This document shows positions 9,001-19,920 of a stretch of DNA of 58,308 nt, one piece after another. A program made the position numbers and the translations under genes. The notes beneath the pieces were generated by a model. It worked only from the letters and a program-made list of their open reading frames with translations. It had not been told where the DNA came from and ran no database searches. Numbering within the stretch: the first letter of the stretch is position 1; every line of letters starts with the position of its first letter. Source of the stretch: a virus (lineage: Duplodnaviria > Heunggongvirae > Uroviricota > Caudoviricetes); the IMG/VR virus record IMGVR_UViG_2778261696_000003; one strand, 5' to 3'.

Positions 9001-9801
9001 TACGACCGTACTGGTCCCGTTAGCGTCAAAAGTACCGGTAGGCAAGCGGTGGGCACCAAGAAATTCAGCTTTCCGTGATAGGCGCAGGCGTAACCGCTTC
9101 ATGTTTGAACCTGAAACAATGGACGGCGGCACAATCACGCACATGAATCCGCCTGGCTTTATCTTGTCCAGCATGCGGAGCATGAAGTAAGAACCCATGT
9201 CCGTTTCTTCTGCGTAAGGCTTATCGATGTTGCGTGTGTTATCACGACCACCGAACGGAACGTTACCCACAACATGGTCGAATGAATCGTTAGGCGTGCT
9301 TACAGCCAGTTGTTCGAACGGGGAAATCTGTACGCTGTCTTCCGGATGTAACAGCTGGTTTATACGACCGGAAACACTGCTGATCTCAGTCGCGGTCATC
9401 ACCGTACCAACCGGTTTTGTCTCATTAAAAACGCCGGTTCCCGCCGATGGTTCCAGAGTGTTACCTACGTCCGCGCCGTAGAGCTTCATGATCTCCCAGA
9501 CACCTTCAGCGATCGGCTTTGGTGTGTAATATTCGGAGACGGACCCGCCAATGCCGCCTTCGCCGGTGTACCCAGCCAGGATCTGGCGCTGTTCATCTGT
9601 CAGTGTCGCGCCGTCCACCAGCGAATTAAGCAAATCTATCGCCTTCTGATTCGCCTCCCGGCGTAGTCGGTCATAGCTTTTGCCTTCCACCTTTTCCACG
9701 CCGTATCTAATCGGCGCTCGGTGAGATGTTATTGCCCTAATGTATTTCAATATTTCGCTGACACTTGAACAGCGAAACACCCCTATAGATAGCTTGTTCA
9801 T
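3034..9801 (-). CDS. darB: DarB-like giant anti-restriction protein (N6-adenine methyltransferase plus helicase domains), 2255 aa
   Basis: 2255 aa as recalled for P1 DarB; methyltransferase motifs (EPSAGTG; VVGNVPFGG) and helicase motifs (GFGTGLGKTT Walker A; VIADEGHNYRN) read in translation; RBS AAGGA before ATG. Confidence 0.85.
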   Translation of the reverse strand: MNKLSIGVFRCSSVSEILKYIRAITSHRAPIRYGVEKVEGKSYDRLRREANQKAIDLLNSLVDGATLTDEQRQILAGYTGEGGIGGSVSEYYTPKPIAEGVWEIMKLYGADVGNTLEPSAGTGVFNETKPVGTVMTATEISSVSGRINQLLHPEDSVQISPFEQLAVSTPNDSFDHVVGNVPFGGRDNTRNIDKPYAEETDMGSYFMLRMLDKIKPGGFMCVIVPPSIVSGSNMKRLRLRLSRKAEFLGAHRLPTGTFDANGTSTVVDVVLMRKHPAEMAEKIPLVDESTLESANVLWSTFISGKWFEKDGRRFVHGTQEKGFQGRIEVRADGQIDNQALKAKLIHRFESRIDWSLLDMAEPSPTADVVGEGEMRLINGVWQKYAGGRWIEADAGKELKIDAASYGADSWEALQRNLTTTEGRLGMTFTQMANVRDKYTTSISDDMVQLVDWINSQPEKYRERLYRGAMIGRMLIEYQDMKAAGHSAEQIEQQRLSLVSRLQAEIDRFGNPGRGPIAKLSGSSARAWFAFRGAIKLDGTISDELTGKLVTHDSSASYDSTSYQDTLRYLYSDLTRDPIQLDDFRLAFTGELPASDDELLNLLASTPGIAVSPYGGIVPFARATSGDINEIVAPKQEFLATLPDGPVKNNVLNQLAAIEEKRIKTPAENIRFKLNSRWFDRSVILEFLQENGYPDLRYVQSVQLEGDEMVSDTYHGGDGLFVGHRYGVVQRKDKETGEIRYEWDRKSGENATGFPAQLEKYLNGARIGGKDSATANGYREQMALLEDQFNKWIKTHDRYDELVAKYNDVFNSNIPYEHSGDPLGLKGLSGKRQPFDYQNSEVRRLSEDGRGILGFGTGLGKTTTALALEAFNYENGRSTRTAYVVPKSVLENWYYEAKEFLSEEAFSNYLFVGLDVLMDGDQIRQVPVLNENGKPVLGTDGTPVMRDALKLADEATITARMNAIPHSNYRAVVFTKEQYARIPLRDDTVDEHAQDMLYDFVAAGRVASAMDSDSHRKEAARRRVLSEYSDTGTEKAEKYPYFEDMGFDSVIADEGHNYRNSYKNGREASQLAYLPTSAVAQSARDMAIKNAYLMKKNGGRGPVLLTATPVVNTPIDAYNMLSHVLPKEYWQKMGIYGPDDFVKFFGKTRLETVQKISGEVEEKMALVGFENLDALRGIFHRWVTLKTAEDVKDTVEIPELDEHQQDAPLTEEQLAAYEELRQQAEAAAKANNGVTTSVNEDGVIEHEKARPTFSIIRDMDRVCTDMDLYYRRITYRFLPEYADAVQQLADSLPKQATSEDDDSDDSITQQSQYSLIDKGEFIQLQVPEAFEQEVNKRLARFGIDEQTVTHPVTPKYAKLIATLKEFFPEGKQIIFTDEKTQHQKLKRIICNALNLEPSKVGILNAQTVAEAGKTGKKLKAVKPPKELPDEPTDAQIAKYNEQMALYDAYIAQQNEMLLGGLEKIAADFQEGRTPIIICNKKAEVGINLHRGTTDIHHLTLPWTPASIAQRNGRGARVGSNRASVRVHYYCGKGSFDEYRLKTLKRKAGWISDILRSDKSEMENADANDMIEMQMYTAKDDGERLAMMQVQMDKAKAAQRARQKEQATIDLQNYIKAQHAAGEDVEVLTAELERSKAELEKTTAEVAKFKQAAMAKAADNADWKARWGSVHHTDRMLLAQYRASLKSAIQRKANISQAISRYEKLLNRTQKAATDIKRLRPLVEDALNKGILDVDPDLVNHASEFLVIGDRSWRVGQYYDCAGDIVRIKSLDFDSQRADVEIIFTFKGTKSGNWDVKTLDKQVDVTPDEDAVMQKISGGVSIAGINDIVSCDDFYRFQQRGMIKITDSYGVQTTESGYSIDFVGTYTDPLKHAVYPDRRDGALKSSIAKWVLGMMSEGNNRQIRSAEAFLVELFGSNYGDVIASYGDTLSPEAIQEKIADAIARMPEKTSQGATRNGDSELEVTNAIFGTNEFRASDYEITTAQFGTIGIYSNKDEIKQAMDAASARIAAERKVNLNHAVAALTQSWVTAIREAATTGKITPAIADVVNDGSKFMDAYKMDAVQLPSAYGQLSYRMTYNLVSMFTDLAILGLVDLNEVTPELLSMRKNHVEILHRINTVLAGRTDEEKQADADRINLALGNITEEEIAARNEKQEELSSIQGDATSIAQSLGLNYRVSTADLKMMYAPKFAAGEVFGLQEASGMKGVLFRAKDAIKAKFGARWLPAKAKNSDFPGNWWIIETKHNVADVLAVIQQYA

Positions 9802-13579: not shown

Positions 13580-13596
13580 ATTGCTCTAATCATTTT
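13580..13596 (+). promoter_or_regulatory. C1-operator-like half match (ATTGCTCTAATcatttt) upstream of ssb
   Basis: First 11 positions match the P1 C1 operator consensus ATTGCTCTAATAAATTT. Confidence 0.35.
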
Positions 13597-13615: not shown

Positions 13616-14104
13616 GTGGCACAACGCGGTGTAAACAAAGTCATCCTGATTGGTACCCTGGGGCAAGACCCGGAGATCAGGTATATACCAAATGGCGGAG
13701 CGGTCGGAAGACTAAGCATCGCAACAAATGAATCATGGCGCGACAAGCAAACGGGCCAACAGAAAGAGCAAACAGAATGGCATAGAGTCGTTTTGTTCGG
13801 GAAACTTGCTGAAATTGCGAGTGAGTATTTACGAAAAGGTTCTCAGGTCTACATCGAAGGGAAACTTAAAACCCGTAAGTGGACAGATGACGCCGGTGTA
13901 GAACGTTACACGACGGAAATTATCGTCAACCAGGGCGGCACCATGCAAATGATCGGCGCTCGCCGTGACGATTCACAGTCCTCAAATGGCTGGGGGCAAT
14001 CGAACCAACCTCAAAACCACCAGCAATACAGTGGTGGCGGTAAACCTCAGAGCAACGCCAATAACGAACCTCCAATGGACTTTGACGACGATATTCCGTT
14101 TTAG
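13616..14104 (+). CDS. ssb: Single-stranded DNA-binding protein, 162 aa
   Basis: Classic SSB N-terminal OB-fold sequence ([19 protein letters not shown]...), Gly/Gln-rich linker and acidic tail DDDIPF. Confidence 0.9.
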
Positions 14105-14306
14105 AGTTTATGAGTAAAAAACGACTGAAAGAAAAGCGGTGGTCAAGACGCCGACAAAAGCACGAACTCGCAAACAAACGCCAAAGTTGGCAATGGCACG
14201 CGCTTTTAACGAATAGAACACCCCGAGATATTGCTTTCGCTGGTGGGAAAACATTCCTAACCAACCTGAAGGCGCAATACATCAGTTTTTAAGCAGAGAA
14301 AAGACT

Positions 14307-15101
14307 ATGACAGCACAAAATACTAAAACCATTCAATACCGCCTGCGTAATGGCCAGAGTGTAGAAGTGACCATCAATAATGATGGTGTACCTGGCGAAA
14401 AGGTTTCGATCTCTGATCTGGCTATCGAAAAAACCATCATGTGCCACCTTGGCTTTACTGAAGAAGTGAGCAAAAAGCATGGTGTAGCTATCTGGCGCAC
14501 AATGGATACTGGCATGCGCAGATTCATTACTGCTCGTACCCCTGGTATGACCATGATGGACCTCATACAGATTGCGCCGCTGTTTGAGTGTGAACCTTTG
14601 GATGTATTCAGCAATCCAGCTATCTGCCAGCAGTTATATGGTGAGATGAAACTCGCGGTTACCCCCATTGTGCTGCATGAAGGATCGCTTGCTGGCGTAT
14701 GGAAAGTAGAGCGAATTTCAAGCTACATGCCATTCCACATCCATGTCAACGGCGTAATCGCAGGTGAAAATCAACCTGTTTCCGTTATAAAGTCAGACCT
14801 CAATCGCGCAATTCTTGAAGCAAGTTGTCGAGTTATCGGCCTGGGCAAACAGTCTTATGTTTCCTTCCCGGCTGGTCCTGAAGGCCCGGCAGAAATTCTG
14901 ATTATGGATGCTGATCTGCTCTGGCAAATACAGTTTCTGATTGGCAAAAGCATCATCCGTGCTGAAGAACTCGATCAGTACATTACCTGCACGATGACGG
15001 ATGAAGTCAAAAGTGTGGCTATAGCCAATGCCCGGAACCTGTGTCGTGCTGCATTAACAGAACCGCAAGAAAACATTCCAGAAGAAACAGAAAGTGACTA
15101 A
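14307..15101 (+). CDS. Hypothetical protein, 264 aa (accessory locus between ssb and ddrB)
   Basis: Long ORF with AGAGAAAAG upstream; followed by a GC hairpin; no recognisable motifs. Confidence 0.5.
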   Translation: MTAQNTKTIQYRLRNGQSVEVTINNDGVPGEKVSISDLAIEKTIMCHLGFTEEVSKKHGVAIWRTMDTGMRRFITARTPGMTMMDLIQIAPLFECEPLDVFSNPAICQQLYGEMKLAVTPIVLHEGSLAGVWKVERISSYMPFHIHVNGVIAGENQPVSVIKSDLNRAILEASCRVIGLGKQSYVSFPAGPEGPAEILIMDADLLWQIQFLIGKSIIRAEELDQYITCTMTDEVKSVAIANARNLCRAALTEPQENIPEETESD

Positions 15102-15298
15102 TAAAAACCCCGTCAGTTGGCGGGGAACTCCACGTCAAATGGCCAATTGTTATGTCAGCTAGCAGTTAAAGCGCCTAGTCATCATCTTTTAAAGAAGTCT
15201 TTTTAACTTACCTAAATTAGTGACACCTCCCGTTTTGCTTGCTATTGTACGCATTCATGAATCTATTCATTAATCTATTCACAATAGTAATTAAAACT

Positions 15299-16603
15299 AT
15301 GGCTATACATGCAACAACAATCCGTAATTTGCTCAATCAAGGTCCTATGACACCAAGACAATTGGTTGAAAGACTAGGTGTTAGCCAACCAACGATATCT
15401 AGAGCATTAAGAGATCTTGGTGATGAAATCGTTAGGATCGGAAATGGAAGATCTATTCAATATGCTTTACGAGACTCTTTTAGAGGATTCGAATCAGTCC
15501 CCATTTATCGTATAACTGAAGAGGGGTGTATTTGCGTTCTTGGTACTCTCATTCCGGTGAGGCCAGAAGGCTATGTTATGGTTGAGGAAGGGAAAAATAA
15601 CAGGCATAGCGATGGGTTACCTTGGTGGTTATTTGATATGCGTCCACAAGGCTTCCTTGGAAGAGCATATGCATCAGCATATGCTCTTGAACTTAACCTT
15701 CCCTCAAATCCAGAGCAATGGTCAGATACTGACGTGATCAAAGCCTTACTTAAGCATGGGCATGATGTTGTTGGTAATTTGTTAATTGGAGAGCAAGCAC
15801 GCACGCATTTTTTAGAGATGCAGCCTCCTGTTCCTGTTAATCGTGAAAGTGAATATCCTGTATTAGCTTTAGCTGCTGGTGAAGGTGATGTGCCCGGTTC
15901 ATCTGCTGGAGGTGAACAACCCAAATTTTGTACTTTCACAGAGCGTGGACATGTATTAGTGAAATTCTCTGCGCCTAACGACACCCCTATAAGTGAGCGT
16001 TGGAGAGATCTCTTGTTTGCTGAACATCTCGCATTAAAAGTTCTGGGGGTAGAAACAGAAGTTTTTGATTATAACGGTCAGAGATTCTTGGAAATTCCCC
16101 GATTTGATCGTGTTGGTCAACTAGGTCGGGTAGGTGTATTCTCACTTCGTGCACTTGATGCAGAATTTGTTGGGAATGCAAGAGCAACATGGCCCTTGCT
16201 GGTTAAAGAGTTGGTAAAAAATAAGTGCGTCCATCCTGATGCGATTATTATAGCAACAAGGCTATGGTCTTTTGGTTTGCTAATAGGCAATACCGATATG
16301 CATAATGGTAACCTATCGTTTATTAGTAGCCACGGACGCCCATATCATATTGCTCCAGCCTATGACATGTTACCTATGGGTTTTGCTCCACGCTCTGGGG
16401 GAGCAATATCTAATGAGCTTAGAAAAACAGCACTACCAGACTTTGTAAGTCGAAAAATATGGGATGAATCTCTTGAATTGGCTGAAAAATTTTATGCATT
16501 GGCCTGTGAGTCCGACAAATTCTCAGCTAACTTTACTCCATGTTTAGAAGCGCTACGCATCCACCTAGATGATTGTAAGATACGCATAGCCCGCCTGGCA
16601 TAA
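15299..16603 (+). CDS. HTH-HipA fusion Ser/Thr kinase (YjjJ/HipH-like HipA-family toxin)
   Basis: N-terminal HTH (TPRQLVERLGVSQPTISRALRDL), HipA-like core motifs (QPKFCTF...VLVKF; FDYNGQRFLEIPRFDRV; GNTDMHNGNLSF with DxHxxN catalytic loop). Start uncertain: TTG 15239, ATG 15257 or ATG 15299. Confidence 0.7.
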   Translation: MAIHATTIRNLLNQGPMTPRQLVERLGVSQPTISRALRDLGDEIVRIGNGRSIQYALRDSFRGFESVPIYRITEEGCICVLGTLIPVRPEGYVMVEEGKNNRHSDGLPWWLFDMRPQGFLGRAYASAYALELNLPSNPEQWSDTDVIKALLKHGHDVVGNLLIGEQARTHFLEMQPPVPVNRESEYPVLALAAGEGDVPGSSAGGEQPKFCTFTERGHVLVKFSAPNDTPISERWRDLLFAEHLALKVLGVETEVFDYNGQRFLEIPRFDRVGQLGRVGVFSLRALDAEFVGNARATWPLLVKELVKNKCVHPDAIIIATRLWSFGLLIGNTDMHNGNLSFISSHGRPYHIAPAYDMLPMGFAPRSGGAISNELRKTALPDFVSRKIWDESLELAEKFYALACESDKFSANFTPCLEALRIHLDDCKIRIARLA

Positions 16604-16610
16604 ACAACAA

Positions 16611-16636
16611 ATCCCGCCGATTGGCGGGATTTCTTC
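16611..16636. terminator. Bidirectional intrinsic terminator (ATCCCGCC-GATT-GGCGGGAT then TTCTTC)
   Basis: 8-bp GC stem with T-rich flanks on both strands between convergent genes. Confidence 0.55.
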
Positions 16637-16943
16637 AATATACGATCTGGTCTGCATGATCACCAAAATCATCGTCGTCGTCCTCATCGCCACCATCTAC
16701 TGCTGGCCAATCAACAAACCAGCCAGCGTAAAGATGCAGCGTTCGGAGAACATCACTTGCGGGAGCATCAAGGGTGTTAACGAATCCCATATAGCTATTG
16801 GGATTTGCCCCAGCTATGGCTTCAGCGATCATGTCCTCGGTAATGTCACCGGAGATAATGCTTAAACGCCCGGAAACTTCTTCATTATCATCAAATTCGA
16901 TAATGGCATCTCCGCCTAATGGCGCTGCGATTTTAATCTGCAT
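16635..16943 (-). CDS. Small highly acidic protein, 102 aa (last gene of the ddrB operon)
   Basis: C-terminus DGGDEDDDDDFGDHADQ; overlaps ddrB stop by 11 bp. Confidence 0.45.
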   Translation of the reverse strand: MQIKIAAPLGGDAIIEFDDNEEVSGRLSIISGDITEDMIAEAIAGANPNSYMGFVNTLDAPASDVLRTLHLYAGWFVDWPAVDGGDEDDDDDFGDHADQIVY

Positions 16944-19920
16944 TATTTAGCTCCTTTGCCACACCTAATAACAGTTCCAGCAATCCGTCACCATTCATCA
17001 GTGATGCGGCAGCGGCCTCTTTGTCATGATACAACTGAAGAGCCATAGAGAATACTTCCGTTGCTGACGTTTTGGAAATAGTCGGTGATTTCTGCCGAAT
17101 TTTCCCGGTGTTACTTACTGAGGCTGGCGGGTATACCTTCGCCATATAAATATTACTCAATCGAGATCTGAAGCACCATTCAGGCTTGCCACGCCCACCG
17201 ATATTAACGAAAGATGGCTTATCCCCTTCAACATTGGCCTTCAGGAATGACCGGGCTTTCTCTAACAAACCAGGGTTACTGTACTCAAGATGATGACCCA
17301 GCTCGTGCCACAGTGCACTTGCATTTTCATCGTTCAAATTGACAGCAACAACACCATTAAGATTTGCATATGCCCTTCCCTGGTGGTGAACCACCTTTGA
17401 TAAGGTCGATATTTTCCCGCCGGTCAGGCGATAAATATCAGCAAGTTCCTTGCGCAGGTCTATCCCACCACTCTGTCCAGCGCGGGCTTCTTCCACTTCT
17501 TCCGTGATAAAAGAGTCGGCCCACTCAAGAGCTTTTTCTTCAGATACGGATGAGTTGGCTATCGCACTATTCATGGCAGATAACACTTTCTCGTGGACCG
17601 AACCCATACTTCGCTGATTCATTTGCCAGCGTGTCTGCGGGTTATATGAGAATCGCTTAAGTAGTTGGTCAAGATGCTCAAGTTCTTCTTCGCTGACATA
17701 CTTTTTAGCCTCACCAATAATGCCGGGGAGAATATTGCCGTTAGGATTAAACGCTCGCGAAAGGAAGAGTTTCAGCGCCCCCATGCCCTCCGATGCTTCA
17801 ATATCACCAATAACACGGTTAACAATGGCCGCACTCTTCGGATTAGCATCCGCCAACGCTCTGGCTACGATTTGCAGGGACGATACGACCTCACGCTGCA
17901 TATCAGTCCTGATCTCATCAATAAACTCTGGCGTTATGCCGTGCTCTTTAAGGATATCCCTGCCTTCCGCCGTTACCCCATCGATATCACCGACATGTTT
18001 ATTAACCTGACTTTGCAATGCCTTAAATGCCTTCAGAATTCCACGGGCATCATCAGCTTTACTAACGGCCTTCCTGAATGCTGGCAAGAAGTCAGAGTTA
18101 ACCTCATTTTGTTGATCGGCCCACTGAATGGAGGCTTCTTTCATCTCGTCCAGAGTCAGATCACCCAACGCGGTATGGTCTGTGAATATGAGCGACAACC
18201 TCTGAACCATTTCTGCCAATGGTGATGCCGAATGCGCCGCGCTAAGGAATGCTTTCACCCTGGTTGGGCGAATGGAAAACCAGTCAATAGCTGGTGGCAT
18301 ATCTCCGTTTTTTATCGCCTGCGCTATCTCGTCAAAGCCATCGCGCCCAAGGGAGGATGCGTGATTTAACAAGCCGCGAAGTAACGAATTGCTGATACCG
18401 AATAATCGGCACCATTTTTTCACGTCGGCAACAGGCATTCGAACAAAATGCGCAAGCACTTGTACAAGCTGTTCATCCTGGGGATCTGTGCGGGAAAGCA
18501 GCCTGATCAGATGAATAATGTCTTTGATGCCGGATGCCCGATGTAATAGCAAACTGGTATACGGAGCAACACCGTTGTAACTACCGCCGGAAACGGACTC
18601 GAAAAGACCGCCGGATATCCCTTGCATGCCTTCGTTTTCCAGTTCCTGAGACACCTGGCGAAGGATATCCTGTAACGACACATCACCACCGCCAAACATA
18701 TCCCCCAGCGCCTGGCCCTGGTGCTGTAACTCATCATTGATACGTTGAGCCATCAATTTAAAGGCGGTGGCCATACGCTTCGCGCTACGGTTATTCGCGA
18801 CGATGAACAACGCGAGCGCTTTCACTTCCGGGGCTGTTTCGCTGAACATATCCCCCTGAGCAATAACATCGATAATATGTTGGCCTGACTCCTTCGATTG
18901 CCTTACCAGGTCTACCGCATCTTTCAATGCCGCCAGCGCCTTTTTATCGAGACTATCCGCTGTCTCAATACCATCAACAATAGTTGTCACAGCCTGCTTG
19001 TGCGCTTCTCCTGATAAAGCCTGCATCTGGACAAAATCATTGGCTGCCGCATTAAGCGCCGTCAGAACATTACGCATATCCGGATCAGGTTCTTCTGCAA
19101 CCATCCTTACCAGGCGCGCATCCTTATATGCCTTGGCAAAGATCGCGTTTTGTATACGGTCTACAAGTTGCCGTGTTGGTCGCCCATCTTCCGTTACAAG
19201 GCCAGCAGCCTGTGTGGCACCAACTTGCGTCATGAATCCGCGAATAAACGCGTCATTACTGCGGCTAAGCAGATCTCCGCTTTCTGATGGGTTAAACAGC
19301 GTCATCATCGCCGGAGTTATGCTGTCAGCATCAACAAAAGCCTTTTCACTGGCTGCCATTTCCTGAAGATCAGAAATATTTGAGTCCTTGGCAAACTGAA
19401 CGCGGTCAACCTTAGTTAACCGGCGGCGCACCAGTACCGGAGCCGCCATTGATTCAACCTTTTCAGGTCGTATGCCGAATTCGGTCGCATGATCAATCAG
19501 GTACTCACGATACCGATCCGCATTGCCGTCCTGATAGGCTTTGATGATCCCCATGGTCCGTCCATTACCTGACTCAACGGCATTGTCCTCACCAATTATC
19601 GGCGCGCCATGGCTGGATAAACCGGAATCGGTAAGCTGGGCAGGACGCAAATCCTTGGATATCTGGTTGACCTGAAGAAGACTGGATGCGCGGGTCCGGT
19701 CGCGCGGCTGAAGTTCCTGGGGATAGTCAGGGTTAATTTTCCCGTCCAGAGTATTGGATACCAAAAGAGCTGAGGCATCGACGATATCAAACGCTGTTTT
19801 TACCTCGTCTCCCTTCGCTGTCACCACATACGAAACCCGCCCGTAATTGGGCAGGTTTTTTAGCAGCTCGATCAGCGTTTCTATGCTGGTGGCCATTACC
19901 ACCTGATCGCTTAAGCTCAT
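16933..19920 (-). CDS. ddrB: DdrB-like protein, 995 aa (Dar anti-restriction operon)
   Basis: Position after darA-ddrA in a tightly packed operon; synteny with P1 darA operon. Confidence 0.5.
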   Translation of the reverse strand: MSLSDQVVMATSIETLIELLKNLPNYGRVSYVVTAKGDEVKTAFDIVDASALLVSNTLDGKINPDYPQELQPRDRTRASSLLQVNQISKDLRPAQLTDSGLSSHGAPIIGEDNAVESGNGRTMGIIKAYQDGNADRYREYLIDHATEFGIRPEKVESMAAPVLVRRRLTKVDRVQFAKDSNISDLQEMAASEKAFVDADSITPAMMTLFNPSESGDLLSRSNDAFIRGFMTQVGATQAAGLVTEDGRPTRQLVDRIQNAIFAKAYKDARLVRMVAEEPDPDMRNVLTALNAAANDFVQMQALSGEAHKQAVTTIVDGIETADSLDKKALAALKDAVDLVRQSKESGQHIIDVIAQGDMFSETAPEVKALALFIVANNRSAKRMATAFKLMAQRINDELQHQGQALGDMFGGGDVSLQDILRQVSQELENEGMQGISGGLFESVSGGSYNGVAPYTSLLLHRASGIKDIIHLIRLLSRTDPQDEQLVQVLAHFVRMPVADVKKWCRLFGISNSLLRGLLNHASSLGRDGFDEIAQAIKNGDMPPAIDWFSIRPTRVKAFLSAAHSASPLAEMVQRLSLIFTDHTALGDLTLDEMKEASIQWADQQNEVNSDFLPAFRKAVSKADDARGILKAFKALQSQVNKHVGDIDGVTAEGRDILKEHGITPEFIDEIRTDMQREVVSSLQIVARALADANPKSAAIVNRVIGDIEASEGMGALKLFLSRAFNPNGNILPGIIGEAKKYVSEEELEHLDQLLKRFSYNPQTRWQMNQRSMGSVHEKVLSAMNSAIANSSVSEEKALEWADSFITEEVEEARAGQSGGIDLRKELADIYRLTGGKISTLSKVVHHQGRAYANLNGVVAVNLNDENASALWHELGHHLEYSNPGLLEKARSFLKANVEGDKPSFVNIGGRGKPEWCFRSRLSNIYMAKVYPPASVSNTGKIRQKSPTISKTSATEVFSMALQLYHDKEAAAASLMNGDGLLELLLGVAKELNNAD

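Follow-up and report, generated by a model that had tools for sequence, protein, structure and literature searches.

The locus considered here lies between ssb and ddrB in the P1-like virus record IMGVR_UViG_2778261696_000003 (IMG/VR; 58,308 nucleotides, which as a whole we call the window), and the question it raises is what a HipA-family kinase gene represents on such an element, how it could be kept in check there, and what the phage-plasmid might gain from it. We consider it likely that positions 15103-16608 form a self-contained, single-gene HipH toxin-kinase cassette that was acquired as cargo and regulates itself; this judgement covers identity, cargo status and autoregulated self-containment jointly, with any role in defence lying outside it. 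HipH, also named YjjJ, forms clade X of the HipA-homologous kinases and is monocistronic (Gerdes et al. 2021, PMC8262856). The gene order of the window is P1-like, namely pro-lydD-lyz, then ssb-isaA-hipH, then hxr-ddrB, and an initial annotation of this DNA had described the gene as a fusion of a helix-turn-helix (HTH) and a HipA-type kinase.

The open reading frame (ORF) named there, 454 amino acids (aa) from a TTG at 15239 to 16603 on the plus strand, is real and its coordinates are exact, and both motifs quoted for it are present, TPRQLVERLGVSQPTISRALRDL (residues 18-40 of the 434-aa protein, nt 15350-15418) and GNTDMHNGN. Its start, however, is almost certainly the ATG at 15299, which gives a protein of 434 aa, the TTG sitting 20 codons (60 nt) too early. 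The ATG is favoured because the aligned methionine begins all close homologues (M1 is invariant in two alignments), because the Prokaryotic Genome Annotation Pipeline (PGAP) picks the same start in identical plasmids (WP_024192174.1), and because the 60 nt between TTG and ATG are a conserved non-coding repeat array (see below); on these grounds the TTG start was dismissed. The PHROGs member has yet another start, an in-frame ATG at 15257, and the identical protein is labelled "unknown function" in that database; its RefSeq/PGAP name is yjjJ, in dozens of plasmids including identical ones. The gene and its parts are:

15299-16603, plus strand: hipH (yjjJ-family) coding sequence, 434 aa, predicted Ser/Thr kinase toxin with an N-terminal winged helix-turn-helix (wHTH); NF007297, Pfam HipA_C and HTH_5/MarR_2, yjjJ in PGAP
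15299-15478, plus strand: wHTH domain, aa 1-60, recognition helix S29-Q-P-T-I-S-R35, from Pfam, AlphaFold2 (AF2) and a PDB profile comparison
15893-15928, plus strand: Gly-rich (P-)loop PGSSAGGEQPKF, aa 199-210, containing the Ser-Ser autophosphorylation site S201/S202
16286-16312, plus strand: catalytic loop GNTDMHNGN, aa 330-338 (D333, H335, N338), in columns invariant with HipA and K-12 HipH
16364-16366, plus strand: Mg2+-binding Asp D356 in the motif PAYDMLP, by alignment to HipA D332 and K-12 HipH D364

The family identity of the protein can be judged from a curated model. NCBIfam NF007297 ("type II toxin-antitoxin system HipA family toxin YjjJ") is an equivalog model with a curated cutoff of 401 bits, and the window protein matches it with 533.4 bits (E=4e-160) over positions 3-446 of the 446 in the profile, an end-to-end match that rules out a chance resemblance; Pfam HipA_C is matched as well (E=3e-15). 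A profile built from 33 homologues matches the solved chains of HipT(Lp) and E. coli HipA through the kinase core, with the same catalytic motif aligned, but these matches are confined to the core (E~1e-5 to 1e-3), whereas BLASTP against K-12 HipH (b4385) aligns the full length with E=6e-90, although at only 35% identity. The residues that define the kinase correspond as follows:

P-loop Ser (autophosphorylated): HipA S150, K-12 HipH S200, window protein S201
Catalytic Asp: HipA D309, K-12 HipH D342, window protein D333
Catalytic-loop His: HipA H311, K-12 HipH H344, window protein H335
Catalytic-loop Asn: HipA N314, K-12 HipH N347, window protein N338
Mg-binding Asp: HipA D332, K-12 HipH D364, window protein D356

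In this alignment S201/A203/G204, D333/H335/N338 and D356 are invariant with both HipA and K-12 HipH, and the catalytic Asp and Asn, on which the initial annotation had staked its reading, are conserved. S201/S202 align with S200/S201 of K-12 HipH, which are autophosphorylated in vivo (PMC9948734). The ATP-binding Lys of HipA, K181, falls opposite an alignment gap; K222 is invariant in 7/7 aligned sequences including HipA, its equivalence to K181 being unproven. No structure of HipH was present in the PDB, and our AF2 model (mean pLDDT 55.8, from a 33-sequence alignment at >=67% identity) is poor in the kinase core. Pfam detected no nuclease domain.

All the testable features of the HipH/YjjJ family are found in the window protein, that is the architecture, the motifs, the Ser-Ser site by the Gly-rich loop, the monocistronic layout and the curated score. 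They include the N-terminal extension of about 100 aa with an HTH that is typical of HipH, and a gene that stands alone between terminator hairpins on both sides and P1 backbone neighbours, with no HipB or HipS gene. Judged by its sequence, then, the protein belongs to the YjjJ/HipH type, with a wHTH and a HipA_C kinase core in a single chain and with kinase activity predicted, and the single-chain architecture proposed in the initial annotation is borne out by the equivalog score above cutoff and by the end-to-end alignment with K-12 HipH.

The N-terminal domain is of a different kind from the rest. ArsR/MarR-type HTH models of Pfam (HTH_5/MarR_2) match residues ~24-62 of the 454-aa ORF, and in the AF2 model residues 1-60 alone are confident (pLDDT 78-89), with a helix-helix-helix-strand-strand order that fits a winged helix. 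While the similarity to solved HipA chains is limited to the kinase core, residues 8-62 of the 33-homologue profile match the ArsR-family repressors NmtR and ArsR. The predicted recognition helix, SQ[PSA]TxSR, is kept in 82/82 homologues.

If such a protein is to be carried by a phage-plasmid as a single gene, one has to ask what keeps it under control, and the DNA directly in front of the gene offers a candidate:

15220-15248, plus strand: promoter-like site, -35 GTGACA, 17-nt spacer, extended -10 TGcTATTGT (consensus scan)
15251-15298, plus strand: leader array in which four 12-nt units (GCATTCATGAAT, CTATTCATTAAT, CTATTCACAATA and GTAATTAAAACT, the last one degenerate) reach the ATG; possible operator of the HipH wHTH

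There is no Shine-Dalgarno sequence before the ATG at 15299. A triple ATTCA with a 12-nt period occurs once in the 58-kb window (0.03 expected), and we compared the leaders of 82 hipH genes, those of the window, of K-12 and of 80 homologous loci. Of these, 72 have ATTCA cores at a spacing of exactly 12 nt and 59 have the perfect triple, in both Gamma- and Betaproteobacteria; the array always sits after a -10-like element and before the start codon, and farther upstream the loci have unrelated DNA. The same GTGAC(-35)/TAnnnT(-10) geometry precedes the array in homologues of other genera. The K-12 hipH leader (...ATCTATTCAagtATCTATTCAcgaATCTATTCAttaATG) also has the array, as three ATCTATTCA-type repeats that recur every 12 nt up to the ATG, and family-wide the pattern is one of 3-4 direct repeats with a (C)TATTCA core. 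Five homologues located in predicted viral contigs keep it, and in a second P1-borne allele (NZ_CP058684.1) the cores are kept and the spacer bases changed. A 38%-identical outlier homologue has neither the array nor the SQPT helix. Since gene and array stay together on chromosomes, plasmids and phages whose surroundings are unrelated, we infer control by the HTH itself: the comparison suggests that the wHTH of HipH binds the leader array, a candidate operator, and so autoregulates the gene. Gerdes et al. state that the control of HipH "remains unknown" (PMC8262856), and the array is not described in the HipH papers examined (PMC8262856, PMC11452175, PMC9948734).

Other forms of control were considered and set aside. 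A palindromic operator, ATTCATGAAT/ATTCATTAAT, was judged incidental, as the second P1-borne allele has lost it but still has the direct-repeat cores. A leader RNA element was rejected on a folding z-score of -0.18 and on Rfam, whose one match, lying over the terminator, was to a small RNA at chance level (E=0.14; 22 bits, the gathering threshold being 114). As to a hidden antitoxin, the 196-nt leader holds no credible ORF, only unsupported ORFs of 21-39 aa, and BLASTP of Hxr, the product of the downstream neighbour, against HipB gave no alignment. The cassette resembles K-12 hipBA in its homologous kinase core, with catalytic Asp, His and Asn, Mg-binding Asp and P-loop Ser conserved, and, as far as can be predicted for the window, in being a growth-arrest toxin with a DNA-binding HTH tied to autoregulation. 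In contrast to hipBA, there is no upstream HipB, the HTH is fused in cis and is ArsR/MarR-like rather than Xre-like, and the candidate operator is built of direct repeats at 12-nt intervals.

Control by the phage repressor can be addressed in the same way. A consensus scan of the window for C1 operators found none at the cassette, the nearest one upstream being the following:

13580-13596, plus strand: C1 operator Ossb, before ssb (Op21/Ossb in the P1 annotation)

In all, the C1-operator consensus ATTGCTCTAATAAATTT gave five matches in the window with <=3 mismatches (0.25 expected), at 9731, 13580, 40334, 42004 and 56206 on the plus strand. Some lytic read-through from ssb-isaA is possible because the hairpin after isaA (see below) has its T-run on the minus strand only.

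Is the gene, then, part of the P1 backbone? The initial annotation had proposed a variable cargo site in the ssb-ddrB interval, pointing to an IS1-containing region of P1 at this position, and had allowed that the interval might instead be conserved backbone in all P1-like phages. The features that delimit the cassette are:

13616-14104: ssb, in the P1 backbone neighbourhood
14307-15101, plus strand: isaA-like gene, 264 aa, left flank, P1 backbone (96.7% nucleotide identity to P1 through 15102; phrog_2326)
15103-16608, plus strand: cargo block (hipH cassette), ~1.5 kb; P1, P7 and empty-slot P1-like plasmids lack it
15105-15125, minus strand: left hairpin CCCCGTCAGTTGGCGGGG, terminator-like site whose T-run lies on the minus strand; it repeats the backbone terminator in diverged form
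16609-16632, bidirectional: backbone terminator hairpin AAATCCCGCCGATTGGCGGGATTT, between hipH and the convergent hxr
16635-16943, minus strand: hxr, 102 aa, right flank, P1 backbone (P1 annotation; no Pfam match)
16933-19920, minus strand: ddrB

Homology to P1, as seen by BLAST, stops at 15102, one base past the isaA stop, and restarts at 16637, the hxr stop; when the window is compared with the empty-slot plasmid pGN4554-1, the backbone restarts at the hairpin that begins at 16609. The cassette has a GC content of 0.39-0.45 against 0.45-0.55 in its flanks. The P1 annotation does show IS1 at this position (ssb-isaA-IS1-isaB-hxr-ddrB), and P7 has ssb-nmpC-odaA-prt, nmpC being a porin gene. We surveyed the slot in 510 P1-like PLSDB records and read its alternative contents in a spread sample; these were an empty slot (e.g. 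pGN4554-1), a DUF2829 gene, an extra hypothetical gene, an OmpC/NmpC porin, insertion sequence (IS) elements and an "anti-phage deoxyguanosine triphosphatase" (dGTPase). Comparative genomics thus confirms a variable cargo site, empty and alternative slots showing that the interval is not conserved backbone, and the position originally given for it stands, with the refinement that the slot runs more exactly from isaA to hxr.

The other contents of the slot (IS1 plus isaB in P1, NmpC/OmpC porin in P7, JL22 and phi456, dGTPase, DUF2829) occupy the same ssb/isaA-hxr region and are likewise self-contained units with their own terminators, swapped flush to the flanking stop codons; they differ from the hipH cassette in gene content, and the duplicated, diverged left terminator hairpin is seen only in hipH carriers. 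Where the slot is empty, the hairpin AAATCCCGCCGATTGGCGGGATTT comes immediately after the isaA stop and before the hxr stop; it also directly adjoins isaA in the DUF2829 and extra-gene variants. The hairpin at 16609-16632 is assigned to the backbone because the empty slot has it between the isaA and hxr stops. Its left counterpart, 15105-15125, forms with 16609-16628 a 20-nt direct repeat of 80% identity and is confined to hipH carriers; this duplication could be a footprint of recombination or a coincidence between two terminators. A transposon-like insertion was dismissed, since the block lacks both a transposase and terminal inverted repeats and shows just the imperfect duplication of the hairpin. 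The block shows what is expected of moron cargo in the P1 family, being present or absent among collinear relatives and having its own promoter-like site, terminators and no C1 operator. We conclude that it is horizontally acquired cargo, fixed in one slot of a widespread P1-like sublineage.

Among the 510 P1-like PLSDB records 29 carry hipH, at 97-100% identity, leaving ~94% without the gene, and 26 complete E. coli genomes out of 5,426 have it. The index lists 1,264 sample blocks with the exact protein, whose neighbours were identical at each of the ten places that were read; it makes up one 90% cluster of 192 member sequences on 714 contigs. The home of the gene is a low-copy IncY plasmid prophage. 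A tblastn search of 50,697 GenBank phage records returned zero homologues. One record, NZ_CP058684.1 (pMBT-5-type), which bears the divergent 98% hipH allele mentioned above, is typed by MOB-suite as IncHI1B instead of IncY, which suggests replicon exchange within the P1-like group. In one of the ten places read (GCA_958333505.1, a 575-kb contig) the P1 segment ends after ddrB, where an IS605-family (OrfB/TnpB) element truncates it and chromosomal-type genes follow, and a hipH-bearing P1 segment is also found in the chromosome-size NZ_CM148631.1 (4437480-4439020). Such P1 segments in chromosome-size contigs are either integrated or decayed P1-like remnants or mis-assemblies.

The two P1-borne alleles, those of the window and of NZ_CP058684.1, allow selection to be examined. 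They differ at 25 of 1,305 nt, of which 15 changes are synonymous and 10 non-synonymous (dN/dS, the ratio of non-synonymous to synonymous rates, is 0.195), and none of the 10 aa differences falls at a catalytic position. The leader differs at 12 of 196 positions, and the divergence of the flanking backbone is of the same order, from 0.6% in hxr to 4.5% in ssb. The gene is thus retained under purifying selection.

It does not derive from a recent copy of the host gene, an origin that was excluded since the chromosomal E. coli hipH gives no blastn match to the window gene at the DNA level and the proteins share only the 35% identity given above. Outside the 90% cluster, the nearest relatives are YjjJ proteins that are 67-72% identical, all chromosomal and in other genera (Pantoea, Serratia, Gibbsiella, Enterobacter, Scandinavium and Dickeya), and a genome scan gave further homologues at 48-65% in Proteus and many Betaproteobacteria. 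Unlike the K-12 gene, which lies between deoD and lplA, the window gene is carried on a phage-plasmid, and the chromosomal members of its subclade are those of Pantoea, Serratia, Enterobacter, Proteus and many Betaproteobacteria. The window protein therefore appears, by sequence comparison, to represent a distinct HipH subclade that is missing from the E. coli chromosome. Its donor is unsampled, as the relatives are all <=72% identical. A lysogen has two divergent hipH paralogues.

Like the window gene, the chromosomal relatives are solitary. The location of the gene differs between genera, the Enterobacter and Salmonella homologues adjoining cusCFBA and an invasin. In Gibbsiella quercinecans (MJLU01000023.1, 1-5766) the chromosomal homologue of 71% identity adjoins, in divergent orientation, a complete type I restriction-modification operon, hsdR-hsdS-hsdM. 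Outside P1-like elements, a 67%-GC predicted viral contig (IMGVR_UViG_2911098371_000001, 5001-6317) has a 53%-identical hipH homologue with the same array, between a lambda-type portal/large terminase and a tape-measure gene; here an unrelated prophage may have acquired hipH independently, unless this stretch is chimeric or degraded.

How the cassette may work can be pictured as follows. In the lysogen, transcription of hipH would start at its own promoter and would not depend on the P1 C1 repressor, and the wHTH (through SQPTISR) would bind the array over the transcription start and leader and repress its own synthesis, while the missing Shine-Dalgarno sequence and the Ser-Ser autophosphorylation would hold activity low. 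If HipH accumulated or were released from this control, it would phosphorylate host proteins and arrest growth, the targets, by analogy with K-12 HipH, perhaps including ribosomal protein L31 and CsrA. For the K-12 protein, overproduced YjjJ causes growth arrest, a kinase-dead form is less toxic, HipB rescues the cells, and HipH phosphorylates L31 and CsrA and cross-talks with HipA and HipB (PMC9948734).

As to what the element gains, an abortive-infection or competition function against other phages is our leading candidate, held only tentatively, with host modulation next. Defence is favoured slightly, as a plausible lead, by the anti-phage dGTPase in the same slot of sister plasmids, by the precedents for HipA-like defence and by the one relative beside a type I restriction-modification operon. 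The slot does host known defence cargo in sister plasmids: in p2RM9154-C1 (NZ_CP031351.1, 1054-2409) and other P1-like plasmids the ssb-hxr region contains the gene annotated as anti-phage dGTPase plus a small gene, isaA being replaced too. In the closest precedent for abortive infection by a HipA-family kinase, a HipA-like kinase paired with DUF3037 (DS-6/HipAD/PDC-M66) is the toxic effector, and anti-phage defence depends on its catalytic residue (PMC13092281, PMC12548924); unlike the window gene, which is single and whose neighbours, the isaA-like gene and hxr, have no Pfam domains, that kinase has a DUF3037/DUF1829 antitoxin partner. The most far-reaching version, in which HipH is a one-protein self-repressing toxin switch with a cis-fused HTH in place of an antitoxin, captured by P1-like phage-plasmids as a single-gene abortive-infection or superinfection-exclusion module, possibly with cross-regulation of the host hipH, is in our view unlikely.

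A number of observations weigh against parts of this account. On the side of regulation, the promoter scan by itself is non-significant (5 sites vs 7.9 expected); the helix and the array are both invariant, which amounts to co-conservation without covariation, and another conserved host factor could bind the array; and no DNA binding was seen for tagged K-12 YjjJ in a ChIP-exo screen, under the conditions used there (PMC8464067). On the side of the effector, the K-12 substrates cannot be transferred to a protein of 35% identity, and one study describes HipH as an HTH-dependent DNase that is curbed by cyclic di-GMP (c-di-GMP) and whose toxicity needs the HTH and not the kinase motif (PMC11452175), which would alter the effector step. 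With respect to defence, PADLOC gave nothing meaningful, only weak matches of the catalytic loop to PDC-M03A (E>=1e-3), a sensor or antitoxin partner gene is absent at the locus whereas the validated HipA defence systems are two-gene systems, and most of the chromosomal relatives lie in housekeeping-type neighbourhoods, outside defence islands.

The last of these points may equally be read in favour of a gene that modulates the physiology of the host (lysogenic conversion) with no role in defence, low kinase activity retuning translation and carbon storage, or cross-talking with the host hipH/hipBA, and so aiding survival under stress. We regard this as somewhat unlikely, although the L31 and CsrA targets of K-12 HipH and its cross-talk with HipA and HipB (PMC9948734) would suit it, as would the presence of the same ATTCA array before the host hipH, by which the prophage HTH could bind the host operator and vice versa, and the porin genes, classic conversion cargo, in the same slot of P7-type relatives. 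Against it, the only phenotype known for HipH at native level is an effect on biofilm persisters (PMC11452175), overproduction of YjjJ did not raise antibiotic tolerance (PMC9948734), and modulation is hard to tell from defence on sequence grounds. An HTH-dependent genotoxin, whose HTH would bind the nucleoid and cause DNA damage, with c-di-GMP as both small-molecule antitoxin and promoter inducer, would link growth arrest or persister formation to the c-di-GMP of the host. HipH of uropathogenic E. coli is reported to be toxic without its kinase motif and non-toxic without its HTH, to be found at the nucleoid, and to have c-di-GMP acting at the hipH promoter region (PMC11452175); moreover, the wHTH and the leader array are the best-conserved features outside the kinase, and genotoxicity would be compatible with autoregulation if c-di-GMP altered operator binding. 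Yet we think it quite unlikely for the window protein, in which, as in its relatives, the four kinase motifs and Ser-Ser are strictly conserved, arguing for selection on kinase chemistry, Pfam sees no nuclease domain and the identity to the HipH studied is only 35%; for K-12 YjjJ, kinase activity, with lower toxicity when it is lost, has been reported (PMC9948734).

Two further explanations concern the persistence of the gene rather than its chemistry. A cassette that kills or arrests cells losing the low-copy P1-like plasmid, as a plasmid-borne hipBA would, fits the location of the gene on an IncY plasmid prophage and the way it is kept and spread with one P1-like sublineage, and plasmids can reportedly be stabilised by HipA-family modules. 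Such addiction requires a labile antidote encoded by the plasmid, however, and none is present, while ~94% of the P1-like plasmids in PLSDB do without the gene, which makes it very improbable. That the gene is an inert, hitch-hiking remnant without a current function for the phage-plasmid would agree with its being one of many slot contents and with the viability of the empty slot. We hold this to be the least credible explanation of all, because the gene is retained under constraint: the ORF is intact in all copies examined, with a dN/dS of 0.195, the two alleles share catalytic residues, promoter geometry and leader cores, and the exact protein recurs in 1,264 sample blocks. A self-contained, autoregulated HipH kinase cassette carried as cargo remains the reading we prefer.

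The type of toxin and the yjjJ label are already known, and the gene is a clear member of a known family; what is added here is modest, namely its status as recurrent, selected cargo of the P1 family and the family-wide leader array. In the literature searched, no paper was found that treats the gene as phage cargo or that pairs "P1-like" with "YjjJ", and "P1-like", phage-plasmid and HipA co-occur in a single paper, on a Cronobacter plasmid. Among the characterised HipA-type kinases, HipH/YjjJ is nevertheless the one least understood; it lacks an antitoxin gene, and two recent papers differ on its nature, a kinase toxin in one and a DNase in the other (PMC9948734, PMC11452175). P1-like phage-plasmids of E. 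coli, which also serve as vehicles of resistance genes, have acquired a divergent HipH, retained it under selection and disseminated it widely, and isogenic lysogens with and without the cassette offer a natural and tractable system for the function of HipH at native level, while the leader array makes the regulation of an orphan HipH directly testable. If the self-repressing switch and its defence role were true, this would be the first phage-borne HipH and the first single-gene defence of the HipA family, and it would provide an answer to how orphan HipH is controlled.

Finally, the left flank shows a difference in annotation. The isaA of P1 is annotated with 320 aa and a start 30 nt after ssb, while in the window and in PGAP-annotated relatives the gene has 264 aa; the discrepancy would be accounted for if the sequences differ by a frameshift or an indel, or if one of the two starts is wrongly placed. 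In the window and these relatives the isaA-like gene is preceded by a separate, very basic ORF of 60 aa in another frame, at 14110-14292 (MSKKRLKEKRWSRRRQKHE...).

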